From Escherichia coli (lineage in GTDB: Bacteria; Pseudomonadota; Gammaproteobacteria; Enterobacterales; Enterobacteriaceae): 64,000 nt of DNA. The first letter of the stretch is position 1. The number at the start of each line of letters is the position of its first letter. Shown here piece after piece: positions 8,705 to 24,618 of the stretch. The notes under the pieces are model-generated. The model ran no database searches, was not told the origin of the DNA, and was given only the letters and a program-made list of their open reading frames with translations. The DNA lies in NCBI RefSeq assembly GCF_045037415.1, contig NZ_CP173438.1; one strand, 5' to 3'. A program made the translations under genes and the position numbers.

Positions 8705-8720
8705 AGCAACAATCGCACCA
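8705..8720 (-). promoter_or_regulatory. Candidate sigma-54 (-24/-12) promoter upstream of ygfK
   Basis: Minus strand reads TGGTGCGATTGTTGCT; GG and GC dinucleotides 10 bp apart, matches TGGCAC-N5-TTGCW at 14 of 16 positions; about 70 nt upstream of ygfK start. Confidence 0.4.
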
Positions 8721-8783
8721 CTCTTGCCAGGTTTGACGGGAAATATAAAAAAATGTGAGGCGGCTCGAAACTTAATGGCTTTT

Positions 8784-8799
8784 TGTGAATGAACTCACA
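8784..8799. promoter_or_regulatory. CRP-like palindrome TGTGA-N6-TCACA (CRP site or enhancer-binding-protein UAS)
   Basis: Sequence TGTGAATGAACTCACA, perfect inverted half-sites, about 70 bp upstream of the candidate -24 element. Confidence 0.4.
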
Positions 8800-8953
8800 G
8801 GTGCCAAATGAGAATTAAAATCACTCCTGAAAATTATTATTGCCAGCCCATTTATCACTTTTTCTCTTTTCTCAAAATCAGTGATTCCTTATCATTATGA
8901 TAAAGAGTGCTGGAGGGATTAAATATTTGAACGCAATCGTTTAACTACGTTTT

Positions 8954-9635: not shown

Positions 9636-10406
9636 GTGAAAAGTATAATTGACCCATCGGCATTATTCATTGATTTAGGCGCGCAGAAACGTCCCACTGT
9701 GATTTCTATTGTTGGTGCTGGGGGGAAAACCAGCTTGCTTTTTTGGCTGGCAGAACTGTTCCAGGCGAGTGGCAGGCGTGTATTAATCACTACGACGACA
9801 CATATGTTTATGCCAACATCTCACTGGCCCGTGGTTTTCTGTCGTGATCCCGCCATGCTTCCTCATGCGTCTTTTATATCCCCCATTTCATTTTGTTTTC
9901 ACTGCTGGAAAGCGAACCAGGGAAAAGTGCAGGGATTTACGCCAGAAGCGATTGATGCACTGGTACAACGACCAGAGTGTGACGTAATTCTCATTGAGGC
10001 AGATGGCTCGCGTGGAATGCCGTTAAAAGCGCCTGATGAGCACGAACCTTGCATACCTAAAAGCAGTTGCTGCGTGATTGCTGTGATGGGAGGACATATT
10101 TTGGGTGCGAAAGTGAGCACAGAAAATGTCCATCGCTGGTCGCAGTTTGCTGATATTACTGGGTTAACACCTGATGCACCCTTGCAACTGAGCGATCTCG
10201 TTGCGCTGGTTCGCCACCCTCAGGGCGCGTTTAAAAACGTACCGCAAGGTTGTCGGCGAGTCTGGTTCATTAACCGTTTTTCTCAATGTGAGAATGCGAT
10301 TGCGCAAAGCGAGCTCCTTCAACCGCTGCAACAACACAACGTAGAGGCAATCTGGCTGGGCGATATACAAGAACATCCTGCAATCGCGCGCAGATTTGTG
10401 AATTAG
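9636..10406 (+). CDS. yqeC: P-loop accessory protein of selenium-dependent molybdenum hydroxylase systems
   Basis: 256 aa, GTG start; Walker A IVGAGGKTS. Confidence 0.85.
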   Translation: MKSIIDPSALFIDLGAQKRPTVISIVGAGGKTSLLFWLAELFQASGRRVLITTTTHMFMPTSHWPVVFCRDPAMLPHASFISPISFCFHCWKANQGKVQGFTPEAIDALVQRPECDVILIEADGSRGMPLKAPDEHEPCIPKSSCCVIAVMGGHILGAKVSTENVHRWSQFADITGLTPDAPLQLSDLVALVRHPQGAFKNVPQGCRRVWFINRFSQCENAIAQSELLQPLQQHNVEAIWLGDIQEHPAIARRFVN

Positions 10407-15806: not shown

Positions 15807-17003
15807 TTAAGGTGCTACAGCGTGTTTGCCTTCCCAGACAACTTCGCGGTAGTGCTTCACGTCGGTGTCGCCTTCAGTGCTGATAACCAGCACCACGGCA
15901 TCTTTGTTCAGCGCCAGTTTTTCCATCAGGCTTTGACGTTGCGGGTGATAATGAACCGCTGCGAGAACGCCCAAACCGACAGCGCCGGATTCACCGGAGA
16001 TGATGCGCGGGTCGTTGCCGTACGGATTACCCAGCACGCGCATACCTAATGCGGCAACGCTGTCCTGGCAGGAGATGAATTGGGTGGCGCAGTTACGTAG
16101 GATTTCCCAGCCCAGCGGGTTAGGTTCGCCGCAGGCCAGGCCCGCCATGATGGTGGCCATATCACCGCCAACGTTGACGATGTCGCCTTTGACGCCGGAG
16201 CGATAAATACAGTCAGCTTTGTCAGGTTCAACAATAATGCTGTGCAGATTTTGCGGGCTATAGACGTCGACCAGATAACCCAGCACACCACCGGCCATTG
16301 CACCGACACCTGCTTGCAGCAGAACGTGTGTCGGGGTTACGCCCATTTCACGCATTTGCTCGACGGCTTCATCCGCCAGTGTTGCGTAGCCTTGCATGAT
16401 CCAGGTTGGGATTTTGGTGTAACCTTCCCATGCCGTGTCCTGTACCACTTCCCAGCCGTGCTGCTGCGCGTGTTGCATGGTCAGGCGAACGGTATCGTCA
16501 TAGTTCATATCCGTGACGATGCACTCGGCACCGAGGTTTAGAATGGCGTCAACGCGTTCCTGAGCAGAACCTTTCGGCATGTAAATCACCGCATTCTGTC
16601 CGAGTTGCTGAGCGGCCCATGCCACACCGCGCCCGTGGTTGCCGTCGGTGGTGGTCGCGAAAGTCATTTTTTCGCCAATGGCATTTTTCAGGTGCTCAAA
16701 TGATAGCGTTTCGATATCAAGATGATATTTTTCACACAATAATTGAGCGATGGCGTATGCGCCGCCGAGCATTTTGAAGGCGTTCAGACCGAAGCGTTTT
16801 GATTCGTCCTTAACGAGAATTTTCTTTACACCAAACAGGTTTGCGAGATCGTCCAGCGCACAAAGCGGTGTTGGGCGATAACCAGCAATTTTCTGGTGGA
16901 ACTGGCGTGCCAGTTTTGCCTGGCTTTGCGAAAAAAGCGGTGATGTTTCGCCGTTGAAAAATTTGTTATCGGCGATATCAATCTTTAATGAGAAAACGGA
17001 CAT
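15807..17003 (-). CDS. ygeX: PLP-dependent diaminopropionate ammonia-lyase
   Basis: 398 aa; fold-type II PLP enzyme features; position between ygeY and ygeW. Confidence 0.9.
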   Translation of the reverse strand: MSVFSLKIDIADNKFFNGETSPLFSQSQAKLARQFHQKIAGYRPTPLCALDDLANLFGVKKILVKDESKRFGLNAFKMLGGAYAIAQLLCEKYHLDIETLSFEHLKNAIGEKMTFATTTDGNHGRGVAWAAQQLGQNAVIYMPKGSAQERVDAILNLGAECIVTDMNYDDTVRLTMQHAQQHGWEVVQDTAWEGYTKIPTWIMQGYATLADEAVEQMREMGVTPTHVLLQAGVGAMAGGVLGYLVDVYSPQNLHSIIVEPDKADCIYRSGVKGDIVNVGGDMATIMAGLACGEPNPLGWEILRNCATQFISCQDSVAALGMRVLGNPYGNDPRIISGESGAVGLGVLAAVHYHPQRQSLMEKLALNKDAVVLVISTEGDTDVKHYREVVWEGKHAVAP

Positions 17004-17060: not shown

Positions 17061-18251
17061 TTATTTCACGCGTTCTTGCGCTTCTTTCAGCAGTTGCTCG
17101 AGCAGTGCACCTGGTTTGGCGTATTTACGGGACAGGATCATCGCGGCGATGATATAAGGCTTCCAGCTGGCTTCTTTGTAGGTAGCGATACGGTATTTTT
17201 CGAATACGCCTTCAGTCACTTCACCTTCTTTGCAGGATACGCCGCTGATATCAGCTGGCAGGCAGTGCATGTACAGGGCTTCGCCATCACGGGTCAGCTC
17301 CATCATCTCTTCGGTACAATGCCAGTCTTTGTGCTGTGCGTTCTGTGCCAGACACTGTTTTTCCAGCGCTTTCAGTCCTTCGTGATCGTTCGCACGCAGC
17401 AGTTCAGTACGCTCTTCCATCACTTTGTAAGGTGCCCAGGACTTCGGATAAACGATGTCTGCGTCTTTGAAGGCTTCTTCCATGCTGGTGACCTGACGGA
17501 AGCTACCACCGGAGGCTTTAGCATTGTTTTTAGCAACTTCAACGACATCCGGGATCAGGTCGTAGCCTTCCGGATGGGCCAGGGTGACATCCATACCGAA
17601 GCGGGTCATCAGACCGATGATGCCTTGTGGTACAGAGAGCGGTTTGCCATAGCTTGGGGAGTAGGCCCAGGTCATGGCGATTTTTTTACCTTTCAGGTTT
17701 TCCAGTGAACCAAAGTGTTCACGTAACCATGCCAGATCAGCCATTGATTGAGTCGGGTGGTCAATATCGCATTGCAGGTTCACTAAAGCCGGACGCTGCG
17801 GCAGCACACCCTGCTTGTAACCGTCATCAAGTGCAGCGCCAACTTCACGCATATAGGCGTTGCCTGCGCCCAGATACATATCGTCGCGAATACCGATAGC
17901 GTCAGCGCAGAAGGAGATCATATTGGCGGTTTCACGCACGGTTTCGCCGTGAGCGATTTGTGATTTACCTTCGTCAAGATCTTGTTGTGCAAGGCCGAGC
18001 AGGTTAAGCGCGGAAGCATAAGAGAAGCGGGTACGGGTGGAATTGTCGCGGAATACGGAAATACCTAATCCACTATTAAAGACTTTGGTTGAGATGTTTT
18101 CAGCACGCAGTGCTTTTAACGCGGCGGCAACGTCCAGTACTTGTTTCAGTTCGTCTGGCGTCTGTTCCCACGTTAACAAAAAATCTTTTTCATGCAGGTG
18201 AGAGGTCAGCGAATTGATATCCTTAATCAGCTCATTAACAGTTTTCATCAT
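17061..18251 (-). CDS. ygeW: Transcarbamylase of unknown specificity (ATCase/OTCase fold)
   Basis: 396 aa; carbamoyl-phosphate motif STRTR and HCLP motif both present. Confidence 0.93.
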   Translation of the reverse strand: MMKTVNELIKDINSLTSHLHEKDFLLTWEQTPDELKQVLDVAAALKALRAENISTKVFNSGLGISVFRDNSTRTRFSYASALNLLGLAQQDLDEGKSQIAHGETVRETANMISFCADAIGIRDDMYLGAGNAYMREVGAALDDGYKQGVLPQRPALVNLQCDIDHPTQSMADLAWLREHFGSLENLKGKKIAMTWAYSPSYGKPLSVPQGIIGLMTRFGMDVTLAHPEGYDLIPDVVEVAKNNAKASGGSFRQVTSMEEAFKDADIVYPKSWAPYKVMEERTELLRANDHEGLKALEKQCLAQNAQHKDWHCTEEMMELTRDGEALYMHCLPADISGVSCKEGEVTEGVFEKYRIATYKEASWKPYIIAAMILSRKYAKPGALLEQLLKEAQERVK

Positions 18252-18343
18252 AAAGTCCCGATAGTGGAATGACAGGCAAAGTGGTTTATTTCACTGTGAC
18301 GTGCCAAAGTGATTGGTGTTTTCACAGCTATACCTCGGACTAA

Positions 18344-18357
18344 CAATAAGTGTGCCA
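18344..18357 (-). promoter_or_regulatory. Weak candidate sigma-54 promoter upstream of ygeW
   Basis: Minus strand TGGCACACTTATTGTT: perfect -24 TGGCAC but -12 reads TTGT instead of TTGC. Confidence 0.25.
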
Positions 18358-18400
18358 GAATTATCCACGCGGCTGCGAAAGGCTAATTTGACGGATAATG

Positions 18401-18416
18401 TGTGGGGTTGATCACA
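18401..18416. promoter_or_regulatory. CRP-like palindrome in ygeW-ygeV divergent region
   Basis: TGTGGGGTTGATCACA (TGTGg-N6-TCACA). Confidence 0.3.
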
Positions 18417-18726
18417 TATTGATGCCAGTTTCCGGTTGTTTGTAAAATACGAAAACGTTTGGCTTTTTTTATTACGTTATTTATTTGCTGCTAAGTATCA
18501 GAAATAAGATAAAGAGGCAGGCTATCTCTCTTCAGTTTGATAAACTTGCCGCTGTAATTCTCATATTGATATAGAAATGTGATATCTCTTCCATAATTTT
18601 ATTAGAAAGTGATAAAAATCTTATGTTTTTATCAAAGCCAATTTCGCCTGAGTTAATATCATCATGATCTGTGAACCATCAACGTCTTCAATGATCGACT
18701 TTTAAGTAAGTCTGGAAGGTAAAGCT

Positions 18727-20505
18727 ATGGAGCTTGCGACTACGCAGTCAGTATTGATGCAAATTCAACCAACAATTCAGCGTTTTGCCAGAATGCTTGC
18801 CAGCGTTTTGCAGCTTGAGGTTGAGATCGTTGATGAAAACTTGTGTCGCGTCGCCGGAACGGGCGCGTATGGGAAGTTTCTTGGCCGCCAGTTGAGCGGC
18901 AACTCACGTCTGCTCCGCCACGTCCTGGAAACGAAAACTGAAAAAGTTGTGACACAGTCTCGCTTCGATCCCCTTTGTGAAGGTTGCGATAGTAAAGAAA
19001 ATTGCCGCGAAAAAGCATTTCTGGGTACGCCAGTCATTTTACAGGATCGTTGTGTTGGGGTGATAAGTTTGATTGCCGTTACCCACGAGCAACAAGAACA
19101 TATCAGTGATAATTTACGCGAATTTTCCGATTACGTTCGCCATATATCCACCATTTTTGTTTCTAAACTTCTGGAGGATCAGGGACCAGGAGATAACATC
19201 AGTAAAATATTCGCGACCATGATCGATAATATGGATCAGGGCGTGTTAGTGGTTGATGCTGATAATCGGGTTCAGTTTGTTAATCAGACAGCTTTAAAAA
19301 CACTCGGTGTTGTACAAAATAATATTATTGGAAAACCTGTTCGTTTCAGACCATTAACATTTGAGAGTAATTTTACCCATGGTCATATGCAACATATTGT
19401 TTCGTGGGATGATAAAAGTGAATTAATCATTGGTCAGTTGCATAACATCCAGGGCCGACAACTATTTTTAATGGCGTTTCACCAATCGCATACCAGTTTT
19501 TCTGTAGCAAATGCACCTGATGAACCGCATATTGAACAATTGGTTGGCGAGTGCCGTGTTATGCGGCAATTAAAACGACTCATTAGCCGTATTGCACCCA
19601 GCCCATCCAGCGTTATGGTGGTTGGTGAAAGCGGCACGGGTAAAGAAGTCGTCGCCCGTGCAATCCATAAGTTGAGCGGAAGACGGAATAAACCCTTTAT
19701 TGCTATCAACTGTGCCGCGATTCCGGAACAGCTTCTGGAGAGCGAACTGTTCGGTTATGTTAAAGGCGCATTTACTGGCGCTTCTGCCAACGGTAAAACA
19801 GGGTTGATTCAGGCGGCGAATACGGGCACGCTGTTTCTCGATGAAATTGGTGATATGCCATTAATGTTGCAGGCTAAATTACTGCGCGCTATTGAGGCGC
19901 GTGAAATTCTGCCGATTGGTGCCAGTAGCCCAATACAAGTCGACATCCGCATCATTTCTGCAACTAATCAGAATTTGGCCCAGTTCATTGCCGAAGGTAA
20001 ATTCCGCGAAGATCTCTTCTACCGACTTAATGTTATCCCGATAACTCTTCCACCGCTGCGTGAACGTCAGGAAGATATTGAATTACTAGTGCATTACTTT
20101 TTACATCTGCATACCCGTCGTCTGGGATCGGTTTATCCTGGCATTGCTCCTGATGTCGTCGAAATATTGCGTAAGCATCGTTGGCCCGGAAACCTGCGCG
20201 AGTTAAGCAATTTGATGGAATATCTGGTTAACGTTGTTCCTTCAGGTGAAGTTATCGACAGCACGCTATTGCCGCCAAATCTGCTGAATAATGGCACAAC
20301 GGAGCAAAGTGATGTAACAGAGGCCAGTGAGGCGCACCTGTCACTCGATGATGCGGGCGGCACGGCGCTGGAAGAGATGGAAAAGCAAATGATCCGCGAG
20401 GCGCTTTCACGTCATAACAGCAAGAAGGAAGTTGCTGATGAACTGGGCATCGGCATTGCTACGCTCTATCGCAAGATTAAGAAATATGAGTTGTTAAACA
20501 CATAA
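18727..20505 (+). CDS. ygeV: Sigma-54-dependent transcriptional activator (bacterial enhancer-binding protein) with N-terminal sensor domain
   Basis: 592 aa; Walker A GESGTGKE, GAFTGA sigma-54 contact motif, C-terminal HTH. Confidence 0.95.
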   Translation: MELATTQSVLMQIQPTIQRFARMLASVLQLEVEIVDENLCRVAGTGAYGKFLGRQLSGNSRLLRHVLETKTEKVVTQSRFDPLCEGCDSKENCREKAFLGTPVILQDRCVGVISLIAVTHEQQEHISDNLREFSDYVRHISTIFVSKLLEDQGPGDNISKIFATMIDNMDQGVLVVDADNRVQFVNQTALKTLGVVQNNIIGKPVRFRPLTFESNFTHGHMQHIVSWDDKSELIIGQLHNIQGRQLFLMAFHQSHTSFSVANAPDEPHIEQLVGECRVMRQLKRLISRIAPSPSSVMVVGESGTGKEVVARAIHKLSGRRNKPFIAINCAAIPEQLLESELFGYVKGAFTGASANGKTGLIQAANTGTLFLDEIGDMPLMLQAKLLRAIEAREILPIGASSPIQVDIRIISATNQNLAQFIAEGKFREDLFYRLNVIPITLPPLRERQEDIELLVHYFLHLHTRRLGSVYPGIAPDVVEILRKHRWPGNLRELSNLMEYLVNVVPSGEVIDSTLLPPNLLNNGTTEQSDVTEASEAHLSLDDAGGTALEEMEKQMIREALSRHNSKKEVADELGIGIATLYRKIKKYELLNT

Positions 20506-21907: not shown

Positions 21908-24166
21908 TCAAATCAATCCTGCCAGATGGAATTCTTCATATAATCGTTTTGGCGTTAGCGGCAGTGTATTGATTGCAACACCGGTAGCCATCTTCACCGC
22001 GTTACGAATAGCAGCGGCTACAGGAATTATGGGTGGCTCACCCAGTGACTTATGTCCGTATGCGGATTGCGGCTCATTGATTTCGACGAACGCGCTTTCC
22101 AGTTGTGGCAGATCCGGCATGGTCGGCATTTTGTAATCCAGCAGATTGGGGTTACGGACCACGCCGCTTTTCGCATCGATGATCATCTCTTCAAATAGCG
22201 CCCAGCCAATGCCCATCCCCATTCCGCCGTGTACCTGACCTTCTGCCAGCAGCGGATTAAGAATATGGCCCGAATCATGAACGTTGAGGATGCGGTTGAT
22301 GGTTACTTTACACAGTGCAATATCGACCGTCAGATCAACAAAGGTACAGCCAAACGCCGGTGGGTTAGTGGTGGTTTTGATGGAGCTTTCGGCAGAGAGC
22401 TGCCCGCCGCGTTCAGGGTGGTAGAAAGCGTCCATCGCCAAATCTTTTAACGACATTAACGGCTCTTCCGGTCGTTCAACCAGCACGATATGGCCTTTTA
22501 TCAGGGTCAGATTCATCGCTGACTGATGTAGCATGACTGCGGCGTGAGCGATGATTTTCTCTTTTAATAACAGTGCCGCACTGCGCAGCGCAGGCGCGGC
22601 AACATAGCTCTGACGTGAGGCAAATGCGCCGGGGTCGAATGGTGTAACGTCGGTGTCTTGTGTCGAAATTACGCGGACATCGCTGACCGGAACTCCCACG
22701 GTTTCTGCCACCATTTGCGAGAACACGGTGTCGGCACCCTGGCCGATTTCCGTCGCGCCGCTTTGCACGTTGATGGTTCCATCCTGATTCATCAACAGGC
22801 GCGCGCCTGCTATTTCTACGCCGACAGGCCAGGTGTTAGAGGTGTAGCTAAAACAGGCGACGCCAACGCCACGACGTAAATTGCCTTGCTGGTTCTGGCA
22901 CTCTGCACGGCGTTTTTCCCATTCAAAGATTTTCCGGCCTTTTTCAAGACACTCCGGCAACCCTGCGCTGTAAATACGTTTTCCCGTGAGCGGATTAGCA
23001 TCTCCTTCGCGGGCGGCGTTGCGTAAACGAATTTCAACAGGATCAATACCTAACGCTGTCGCGGCATCATCAAGCATAGACTCAACGGCAAATACGACTT
23101 GTGGCGCGCCATAACCACGCATCGCACCAGCCGAGGGGAGGTTGGTATAGCAGGTCTTTGAACTGTAAGCGTAGGCACAACGAGGATAAAGGTAAGCGAC
23201 TTTATTCCCCCCAGCAGAAGCAATGGAGTGCCCGTGAGATGCATAAGCGCCGGTGTTAGACAGAACATCCAGACTATAACCTTTCAATGTTCCGTCGCGG
23301 TTCACGCCCATTTGCCCGTCAATAGTAAAAGCGTGGCGGGTACGGGTTGCGAGGAAACACTCTTCACGGCTAAGAGAAACTTTCACCGGAATGCCGCCAA
23401 GTTTGCTTGTCAGGAATGCCGCCATTGGCTCTTCCAGTACATCCTGTTTATTACCAAAACCGCCACCGATAAACGGTTTGATGACTCGTACGCATGACCA
23501 GGGAATATCCAGCGCCTGACCAACCACGCGGCGAACAATGTGCGGGATCTGGGTGCTGGAAACGATGGTAATTCGCGAGTCATCCTCCATCCATGCCAGC
23601 GATGTCACGCTTTCCATATGACAATGTTGAATAACGGGCGTCTGATAGTGCCCCTGTACCTGGTAGTCGGCGGCATCGATTGTTTGTTGGACATTACCCG
23701 TCGACATCGTGCTTTGTTTCAGTAAATTGCCACCGTTATGGATTGGTGCAGCGTCTTCTGCCAGCGCCGCTTCTGACGAGGTGATAACGGGTAATTCTTG
23801 CCACTCAATGCTGACCAATTGCACCGCTTTTTCTGCCGTGAGTTCATCGCGGGCTACGACGATGGCAACGGCGTCACCATGATGACGAACATGACGCGTT
23901 AGCAGGGCACGATCGGCAGTATCGCGCTTGTTTTCGTCAAGTGTCCAGGCATGCCCTGCCGTGGCGAATGGGATTTCTGGCACATCTTCCCAGGTAAAAA
24001 TCGCCAGGACGCCCGGCAAACTCCTGGCTTGTTCATCATTAATACTTACGGCATAACCATGTGCGATAGGGCTACGTACATATTTCGCGTAACACATGCC
24101 CGCCATAACATAATCGTCAGTATATCGTGCCCGCCCGGTGACCTTAGCAATGGCATCGACGCGCAT
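21908..24166 (-). CDS. xdhA: Molybdopterin-binding subunit of xanthine dehydrogenase
   Basis: Start chosen at MRVDAIAKVTGRARYTDDY (752 aa) rather than the 765-aa upstream start; GGGFGNK motif. Confidence 0.93.
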   Translation of the reverse strand: MRVDAIAKVTGRARYTDDYVMAGMCYAKYVRSPIAHGYAVSINDEQARSLPGVLAIFTWEDVPEIPFATAGHAWTLDENKRDTADRALLTRHVRHHGDAVAIVVARDELTAEKAVQLVSIEWQELPVITSSEAALAEDAAPIHNGGNLLKQSTMSTGNVQQTIDAADYQVQGHYQTPVIQHCHMESVTSLAWMEDDSRITIVSSTQIPHIVRRVVGQALDIPWSCVRVIKPFIGGGFGNKQDVLEEPMAAFLTSKLGGIPVKVSLSREECFLATRTRHAFTIDGQMGVNRDGTLKGYSLDVLSNTGAYASHGHSIASAGGNKVAYLYPRCAYAYSSKTCYTNLPSAGAMRGYGAPQVVFAVESMLDDAATALGIDPVEIRLRNAAREGDANPLTGKRIYSAGLPECLEKGRKIFEWEKRRAECQNQQGNLRRGVGVACFSYTSNTWPVGVEIAGARLLMNQDGTINVQSGATEIGQGADTVFSQMVAETVGVPVSDVRVISTQDTDVTPFDPGAFASRQSYVAAPALRSAALLLKEKIIAHAAVMLHQSAMNLTLIKGHIVLVERPEEPLMSLKDLAMDAFYHPERGGQLSAESSIKTTTNPPAFGCTFVDLTVDIALCKVTINRILNVHDSGHILNPLLAEGQVHGGMGMGIGWALFEEMIIDAKSGVVRNPNLLDYKMPTMPDLPQLESAFVEINEPQSAYGHKSLGEPPIIPVAAAIRNAVKMATGVAINTLPLTPKRLYEEFHLAGLI

Positions 24167-24260
24167 GCATGATTCACCCGTAGCGGTTGCTTCCCGCGCT
24201 TCCATAGAAATCCCCTCGGTTTGAACATTTGGTTCTTATGGCAAAGATTTAGTCTTAGCA

Positions 24261-24276
24261 GGCAAGAATTACGCCA
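24261..24276 (-). promoter_or_regulatory. Weak candidate sigma-54 promoter upstream of xdhA
   Basis: Minus strand TGGCGTAATTCTTGCC; GG-N10-GC spacing preserved. Confidence 0.2.
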
Positions 24277-24618
24277 GAAACGACTATATGCGTGAGGGGA
24301 GGAAGGAAGTGTGATGACGTTAAAAAAACACAGATATGATACGAAACAGGACTCTGAATAGGGACAGTGATACGTATCAATATGAGTGGCGATAAAATCA
24401 ATGTGATAAATTAGGATTATTACGCATCAAGGTGGGAAATAGGGTAAAAGTCAGGAAATTCGATACCACTACAGCAAATATTTTGCTGATGATACTTCCC
24501 TTTGCCAAATGAAATTAACCTCTTTCTCTATTACATCGTTTTTCCAGAAGCAAGAGATTGGGTATCAAGAGGCTGGCTGCTATGATATGGCGTCTTGTTT
24601 TTTAAGCGAGGAAAGATT

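Follow-up and report, generated by a model that had tools for sequence, protein, structure and literature searches.

What controls the transcription of ygeW and of the divergently oriented ygeV from the short spacer that separates them? The window analysed here is a stretch of 64,000 nucleotides of E. coli DNA that covers the xdh/yge/ygf purine-catabolism cluster, in an orientation reversed relative to K-12. Both ygeW (17061-18251, minus strand) and ygeV (18727-20505, plus strand) are supported by the open reading frame list and by the RefSeq annotation, and because these boundaries are correct the divergent control region between them (18252-18726) is exactly 475 bp long. Its GC content is 36.4 % compared to 51.1 % for the whole window. 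A preliminary description of this DNA, made from the letters alone, had called it an AT-rich 475-bp divergent region between ygeW and ygeV, and the gene identities, boundaries and coordinates are all confirmed. We conclude, with a probability of about 0.7, that the spacer is an enhancer-dependent sigma-54/CRP/YgeV control region of the ygeW operon and also of the divergent ygeV gene.

To follow the spacer across genera, we aligned the orthologous ygeW/ygeV spacers of eleven other enterobacterial genera with that of E. coli, 12 in all. An orthologue search with the E. coli YgeV protein returned near-identical E. coli proteins only, and the search was reseeded with the protein of Enterobacter sp. 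Bisph1, the one useful orthologue from a YgeV scan of genome contigs that otherwise yielded mostly generic AAA+ peptide patterns. The spacer has a mean pairwise identity of 0.49 in the 12 genera.

On the ygeW side, the sigma-54-like element noted in the preliminary description is real. The 17-mer CTGGCACACTTATTGTT lies at 18342-18358 on the minus strand and contains TGGCAC-N5-TTGT (18343-18357), read on the ygeW-sense strand, with the -24 GG at 18355-18356 and the -12 'GT' at 18343-18344. Compared to the TGGCAC-N5-TTGCW consensus the TGGCAC is perfect and the spacing correct, while the -12 doublet is GT instead of GC. The same 17-mer is the sigma-54 ChIP-seq site OS30, located 80 bp upstream of ygeW with a FAT of 3 (Bonocora 2015, PMC4591121), and with the RpoN holoenzyme gSELEX placed a peak of 53-55 % between ygeV and ygeW (Shimada et al. 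2021, PMC8743547). In the alignment TGGCAC-NN-TTATTGTTA is invariant in 12/12 genera, the -12 T included, and the mean pairwise identity of the box is 0.91. Placing transcription initiation 12 nt downstream of the -12 puts the ygeW start at 18331 on the minus strand. The resulting 80-nt leader agrees with the 'distance 80' in Table 1 of Bonocora, and the distance from this start to the ygeW ATG ranges from 69 to 96 nt across the 12 genera.

The -12 GT had been taken as a weakness of the promoter call, which the invariance of TTGT in all 12 genera and its presence at the confirmed pspA and pspG promoters (Bonocora 2015, PMC4591121) speak against. Because TTGT is invariant across the 12 genera, we consider the GT to be a maintained feature and not a sign of decay. 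The related claim that this promoter is weaker than that of ygfK holds for occupancy in vivo (FAT of 3 versus 26) but not for the -12 GT as a ground for doubt. The low ChIP signal at ygeW fits a weaker closed complex.

Further upstream lies the CRP box TGTGGGGTTGATCACA (18401-18416; TGTGATCAACCCCACA when read on the minus strand), of which 9/10 core positions fit TGTGA-N6-TCACA. Its centre is 65.5 bp from the ygeW -12, at about -77.5, and 53 bp upstream of the -24 GG, which bears out the earlier mention of a CRP-like palindrome about 50 bp upstream. The box is a published one: a CRP SELEX-chip study gives TGTGATCAACCCCACA for the CRP box in its ygeV/ygeW peak (Shimada 2011 Table S3, PMC3105977). 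The targets of that study, obtained with purified CRP-cAMP and defined at peak, not footprint, resolution, include ygfK, ygeV/ygeW and ygfT/ygfU (Shimada 2011, PMC3105977). The half-sites have identities of 0.88 and 0.80 in the 12 genera, while the 6-bp spacer between them drops to 0.32, and they are found at 65.5 or 66.5 bp from the -12 in 12/12 genera. All 12 keep GTGA-N6-TCNCA, with a single second-half substitution in E. coli, Citrobacter and Raoultella. The motif comparison across Enterobacteriaceae that the preliminary description had proposed thus finds the sigma-54 box invariant and the CRP half-sites fixed in every genus aligned.

One explanation for such matches is chance in AT-rich intergenic DNA, with no regulatory role. 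Pattern counts by themselves are indeed not significant: TGGCACN5TTGY occurs once in the window against 0.37 expected, a count of 1 being reached in 33 of 100 shuffles, and TGTG-N8-CACA occurs twice in the 64 kb against 1.19 expected, the other match being upstream of ygfK. With up to one mismatch, TGTGA-N6-TCACA has 6 matches in the window against 2.0 expected. The low ChIP occupancy at ygeW (FAT 3) points in the same direction. However, ChIP-seq and two independent gSELEX data sets contradict the absence of a role, and across the 12 genera the boxes have identities of 0.8-0.9 compared to 0.32-0.35 for the DNA that flanks them. We therefore hold chance to be extremely improbable; what makes the sigma-54 and CRP elements real is their position, orientation, cross-genus conservation and published binding, not the pattern count.

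Which protein the palindrome serves is a separate matter. At both ygeW and ygfK, TGTG-N8-CACA palindromes lie about 55-85 bp upstream of the -12, a distance from which an enhancer-binding protein (EBP) could act; the operons that they precede belong in both cases to the YgeV iModulon, and the enhancers of NifA, FhlA and 15 clostridial EBP groups follow the pattern TGT-N10-ACA (PMC6615313). The palindromes could thus be the YgeV enhancer, their binding of CRP in vitro being incidental. Against this, purified CRP-cAMP selects exactly these sequences, and in most other genera the outer bases of the ygeW box are altered (CGTGA...TCGCA), which breaks TGT-N10-ACA but keeps the GTGA/TCNCA core that fits the CRP consensus. 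Moreover, xdhA belongs to the same iModulon without having the palindrome, and the published motif of the orthologous clostridial EBP is a different one that all four E. coli promoters carry. We judge it very unlikely that the palindrome is the enhancer; most likely it is the site of CRP and not of YgeV. If the shared activator site suggested earlier for ygeW and ygfK was meant as a YgeV site, the selection of the palindrome by purified CRP, and the different motif common to four YgeV-iModulon promoters, argue against it.

That different motif is the basis of our prediction for YgeV itself. YgeV is a PAS/AAA+/Fis-HTH enhancer-binding protein for which NCBIfam has no curated family, the best match, PrdR, being under its cut-off. 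Its iModulon takes in the genes of the four promoters, xdhA included, and ygfT expression is reduced in a ygeV mutant. In the literature searched we found no report of an enhancer motif or of DNA targets for E. coli YgeV. In E. coli strain 23753 (NZ_CM190131.1) the annotation places an IS1 transposase within ygeV, whose parts are listed separately as a 'GAF domain' protein and a 'sigma-54 interaction domain' protein.

In Clostridia, the EBP group DioR has the motif AWTTMTCA-N3-TGAKAAWT and a predicted regulon of dpaL, ygeW-ygfK-ssnA-ygeY, yqeB and xdhABC (Nie et al. 2019, PMC6615313). Its sites include ATTTATCATAATGATAAGG of C. botulinum and AATTCTCGTATTGATAAAA, and lie 100-250 bp upstream of sigma-54 promoters as upstream activating sequences (UAS; PMC6615313). 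The E. coli counterparts are TTTATCATAATGATAAGG at ygfK and AATTCTCATATTGATATAG at ygeW. We generated a weight matrix from 14 published clostridial DioR sites only, the lowest-scoring of which reaches 19.4, and scanned the 64 kb with it. The four best positions are 18556-18574 (19.0), 8887-8905 (18.3), 10278-10296 (16.6) and 24393-24411 (13.7), and the fifth drops to 10.3. In Sedimentibacter a YgeV homologue of 36 % identity stands ahead of three TATCA-N3-TGATA palindromes, with a TGGCAC-N5-TTGCT promoter and dpaL-ygeW beyond them. The E. coli, Clostridium sp. MAG and Sedimentibacter proteins have exactly the same HTH segment, LGIGIATLYRKI.

The top-scoring position is the first of the predicted YgeV units in the ygeW/ygeV spacer, AATTCTCATATTGATATAG (18556-18574, with the core TATCAATATGAGA at 18559-18571). 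Its centre is at about -234 with respect to ygeW, it is found between -234 and -237 in 12/12 genera and its identity is 0.80. The second predicted unit, TATCAAACTGAAG (18530-18542, minus strand), matches TATCANNNTGA and is centred at about -205; the exact core is present in 6/12 genera, while across all 12 aligned genera the block is conserved (identity 0.77). A third conserved block, TATCACATTTC / TGTGATATCTCTTCCA (18572-18593, identity 0.75), combines a partial unit centred at about -247 with an overlapping CRP-like box of two mismatches that is found at -254.5 or -255.5 in 9/12 genera. This arrangement at about -205, -234 and, partially, -247 is the same in the 12 genera. The pattern TATCANNNTGA has 10 matches in the window against 1.8 expected, a number that 0 of 100 shuffles reach, and 7 of the 10 are located upstream of ygfK, ygeW/ygeV and xdhA.

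The unit consensus, TATCA-N3-TGA(T/G)A, recurs at ygfK, xdhA and uacT. Taken together, motif sharing and the orthology with DioR suggest that these repeats are most likely the YgeV enhancer, a prediction made from sequence. In the ygeW/ygeV spacer the units lie about 205-250 bp upstream of the inferred ygeW start and 140-190 bp upstream of the ygeV ATG. Since they are more than 200 bp from the ygeW promoter and closer to ygeV, they could mainly serve the autoregulation of ygeV.

The layout recurs upstream of ygfK, as the preliminary description had said of the palindrome, and both CRP boxes are printed by Shimada 2011. The ygfK sigma-54 promoter GTGGTGCGATTGTTGCT (8705-8721, minus strand) is conserved in 8 genera and is the ChIP-seq site OS31 with a FAT of 26, while the promoter of xdhA is OS29 (Bonocora et al. 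2015, PMC4591121). The CRP box TGTGAATGAACTCACA / TGTGAGTTCATTCACA (8784-8799) has a perfect core and is listed in Table S3 of Shimada; it lies 85.5 bp from the -12 and is kept in 7/8 genera at 85.5 or 86.5 bp. A second, weaker box, TTCGAGCCGCCTCACA (8754-8769), listed by Shimada 2011 as TGTGAGGCGGCTCGAA, is 55.5 bp from the -12 and is found at 55.5 or 56.5 bp in 8/8 genera. The spacer between ygfJ and ygfK was the third most frequent target with 9 SELEX clones, and both TGTGAGTTCATTCACA and TGTGAGGCGGCTCGAA are printed for it (Shimada 2011, PMC3105977).

The predicted YgeV site of ygfK, CCTTATCATTATGATAAAG (8887-8905, matrix score 18.3, rank 2), is a perfect TATCA-N3-TGATA palindrome, and TATCA...TGATA is invariant in 9 genera. 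Only the first base distinguishes this 19-mer from the DioR site ATTTATCATAATGATAAGG of C. botulinum. Two more blocks, AGTGATTTTAATTCTCAT (8808-8825) and TTTTGAGAAA (8868-8877), both on the minus strand, are conserved in 9 genera; they are flanked by the YgeV-type palindrome on one side and by the CRP box on the other. The AGTGATTTTAATTCTCAT block and the ygeW enhancer unit have AATTCTCAT in common.

At xdhA, the sigma-54 promoter CTGGCGTAATTCTTGCC (24261-24277, minus strand), the ChIP-seq site OS29, is conserved in 5 genera. Two predicted YgeV units, TATCACATTGATT and ACTCATATTGATA (24375-24411, matrix score 13.7, rank 4), are 21 bp apart, at 140 and 119 bp from the -12. The only CRP-like box is degenerate, TTTTA-N6-TCACA, and xdhA is not among the CRP SELEX targets. 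A conserved element containing TCACA lies 55.5 bp from the -12 at both xdhA (24310-24325, TTTTA-N6-TCACA) and ygfK (8754-8769, TTCGA-N6-TCACA); that of ygfK is in the CRP list of Shimada 2011, from which the xdhA counterpart is absent.

As for the start of the xdhA gene, the in-frame ATG at 24205, which gives a 765-aa protein, and the 13 codons after it (24166-24205) are conserved in five genera, and gene calls elsewhere have the long form of 765-767 aa. In K-12 the annotated protein has 752 aa. With the distance of 84 that Bonocora gives for xdhA, the gene would begin near 24166 and be shorter by 13 codons.

In the K-12 spacer between ygfT and uacT (NC_000913.3, about 3031160-3031298) the identical 13-mer TATCAATATGAGA is followed by the CRP-like TGTGATTGCCTCCGCA and then by the sigma-54-like TGGCACTCCACGAGCA. 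This candidate promoter of uacT is absent from Table 1 of Bonocora, and the CRP box that Shimada's table names for the spacer differs from TGTGATTGCCTCCGCA. The three-part layout of predicted YgeV sites, CRP-type box and -24/-12 element thus recurs at ygfK and uacT, and at xdhA with a degenerate CRP box.

The third-ranked YgeV/DioR-type site, TTTTCTCAATGTGAGAATG (10278-10296, score 16.6), falls in the 3'-terminal part of yqeC, with the start of yqeB, a DioR target in Clostridia (PMC6615313), about 158 bp away; downstream of the site no -24/-12 element was recognisable. The coding region of ygeX/dpaL also contains, about 280 bp from where it starts, a perfect TATCAAGATGATA palindrome, the YgeV-type core (16715-16727).

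The divergent position of ygeV raises the possibility that the main role of the CRP box is at a CRP-dependent sigma-70 promoter of ygeV, in which case catabolite control would be indirect, through the level of YgeV, and CRP would have no role at the sigma-54 promoter. Just past the box on the ygeV side there is a sigma-70-like TTGATG-18-TAAAAT (18419-18448, plus strand), ygeV itself is strongly regulated, being for instance induced by indole, and CRP sites are often shared in divergent regions. This pair of hexamers is, however, not conserved outside the closest genera, promoter-like sites are no commoner in the spacer than in shuffled sequence (2 versus 2.3), and the implied CRP position of about -46.5 agrees with neither class I nor class II spacing. 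Furthermore, the distance from the box to the sigma-54 -12 is fixed in 12 genera, and CRP boxes also precede ygfK and uacT, neither of which adjoins ygeV. We thus regard a CRP box working mainly for ygeV as unlikely.

Another stretch on the ygeV side, at 18654-18669 on the plus strand (identity 0.85), contains the invariant columns TAnTATCAT (18654-18662), which plausibly represent the -10 region of a sigma-70 promoter of ygeV. A sigma-70 consensus scan did not call this element and identified no conserved ygeV promoter. The E. coli copy also forms the UAS-like TATCATCATGATC, a match to TATCANNNTGA; such a unit over the candidate -10 would allow autoregulation, although this is speculation.

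Toward ygeW, the last 26 nt of the leader (18252-18277, minus strand, GCCnGTCATTCCACTAnCAGGA) form a conserved leader and ribosome-binding segment with invariant columns and an identity of 0.79, compared to 0.45 for the remainder of the leader. This conservation may reflect more than the ribosome-binding site. A search of Rfam with the spacer and the ygeW leader gave nothing credible (best E-value 0.88).

The DNA from the YgeV-type sites to the CRP box also contains a PurR-operator-like sequence, ACGAAAACGTTTGGCT (18449-18464), with 13/16 matches to ACGCAAACGTTTGCGT and the central AAACGTTT intact, conserved in E. coli, Citrobacter, Atlantibacter and Trabulsiella only. ygeW has been placed computationally in a putative PurR cluster (PMC4576408). 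We do not retain the box as significant: it is the sole match with up to 3 mismatches in the 64 kb, and 0.58 are expected by chance. By eye, no IHF consensus (WATCAANNNNTTR) was seen between the UAS and the promoters.

The distance from the UAS to the CRP box at ygeW is 155.5-158.5 bp in the 12 genera, while the intervening DNA is 32 % identical and essentially unalignable. At the four promoters the distances from UAS centre to CRP centre are 156.5, 127.5, 104.5 (83.5 in other genera), 84.5, 63.5 and 74.5 bp. Expressed in turns of 10.5 bp they correspond to 14.9, 12.1, 9.95 (7.95), 8.05, 6.05 and 7.1, all within about 0.15 turn of an integer, in a comparison that is post hoc and whose values are not independent. 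Such phasing would place the enhancers on one face of the helix together with the CRP bend, and it is from this near-integer spacing that we propose looping assisted by a CRP bend.

The mechanism that we propose would serve the ygeW-ygeX-ygeY-hyuA-yqeA operon, part of anaerobic urate/purine degradation, together with the divergent regulator gene ygeV. Sigma-54 RNA polymerase, whose binding was shown by others, would wait as a closed complex at TGGCAC-N5-TTGT, with CRP-cAMP, whose binding in vitro was likewise shown by others, on the palindrome centred 65.5 bp upstream of the -12. Some 205-250 bp upstream of the start, YgeV is predicted to occupy the TATCA-N3-TGA(T/G)A repeats, from where its hexamers would reach the polymerase through DNA looping. 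A CRP-induced bend on the same face as these distal enhancers may help or gate the loop, and the operon would thereby come under catabolite control.

Glucose represses urate degradation, and the repression is relieved when constitutive promoters take the place of the native region, whose site in the spacer is named 'the native Crp-binding site' in a 2025 study of the reductive urate pathway (PMC12507026). Gating of the loop by the CRP-cAMP bend would explain this glucose repression of uricolysis. Points against the proposed mechanism include the following: xdhA, in the same iModulon, has a degenerate box only and is no CRP SELEX target; the occupancy of ygeW by sigma-54 in vivo is low (FAT 3); and glucose may repress indirectly, for instance by way of inducer uptake or the expression of ygeV.

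We further hypothesize, tentatively and with more doubt than confidence, that the whole sigma-54 regulon, namely ygeW, ygfK, uacT and possibly xdhA, requires CRP-cAMP as a helically phased architectural co-activator. A positive architectural role of CRP has little precedent, since the documented CRP effects at dctA, glnAp2 and Pu are inhibitory. If true, CRP would stand in the place of IHF and exert a positive catabolite control, the opposite of its inhibition at glnAp2, dctA and Pu, and in such an arrangement the TTGT conserved at the -12 would be a tuned feature.

Since the sigma-54 site and the CRP box are both published, the two elements flagged in the preliminary description were already known: the observation is confirmed, its interpretation is partly supported and the finding is not new. 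What we add is modest, namely the conservation of the non-canonical -12, the fixed geometry across genera and the transfer of the DioR motif to YgeV at four promoters. The operons concerned carry out the anaerobic urate/purine degradation of gut enterobacteria, a pathway for which a link to uric-acid levels in the host has been described, and replacement of the ygeW/ygeV spacer is already used in engineered probiotics to escape glucose repression (PMC12507026). Assigning its boxes to sigma-54, CRP and YgeV tells engineers what to retain or delete, and supplies a concrete, testable enhancer motif, as a prediction, for E. coli YgeV.

The proposed architecture resembles that of sigma-54 promoters of the IHF-at-Pu type, with an upstream site for an AAA+ EBP, a middle bent by a protein and a -24 GG/-12 core for the closed complex, the distances being conserved and the intervening sequence free. 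It differs in having a CRP box in the intervening position and in the unusual distance of the UAS, about 193-235 bp from the -12. The -12 TTGT instead of TTGC is shared with pspA and pspG, but these have a different activator, PspF, a different physiology and a higher occupancy (FAT of 21 and 15 versus 3).

Analogous to glnAp2, dctA and Pu, where CRP-cAMP acts on the sigma-54 closed complex and inhibits, and where the orientation of the bend between UAS and core matters, our proposal has CRP-cAMP acting at the closed complex. Unlike the inhibition at those promoters, glucose repression here suggests a positive effect of CRP, and unlike Pu, at which no CRP site was found, the ygeW region has strong and conserved CRP boxes.

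The closest likeness is to the clostridial DioR system. YgeV is an orthologous EBP with 36-39 % identity and an identical HTH segment, the targets dpaL, ygeW, ygfK, ssnA, ygeY, yqeB and xdhABC overlap (PMC6615313), and the two have one UAS motif in common, ATTTATCA-N3-TGATAA / AATTCTCA-N3-TGATA, located 100-250 bp upstream of sigma-54 promoters. Unlike the DioR regulon, the enterobacterial promoters add CRP boxes and have non-consensus cores, TTGT at ygeW and TGGTG at ygfK.
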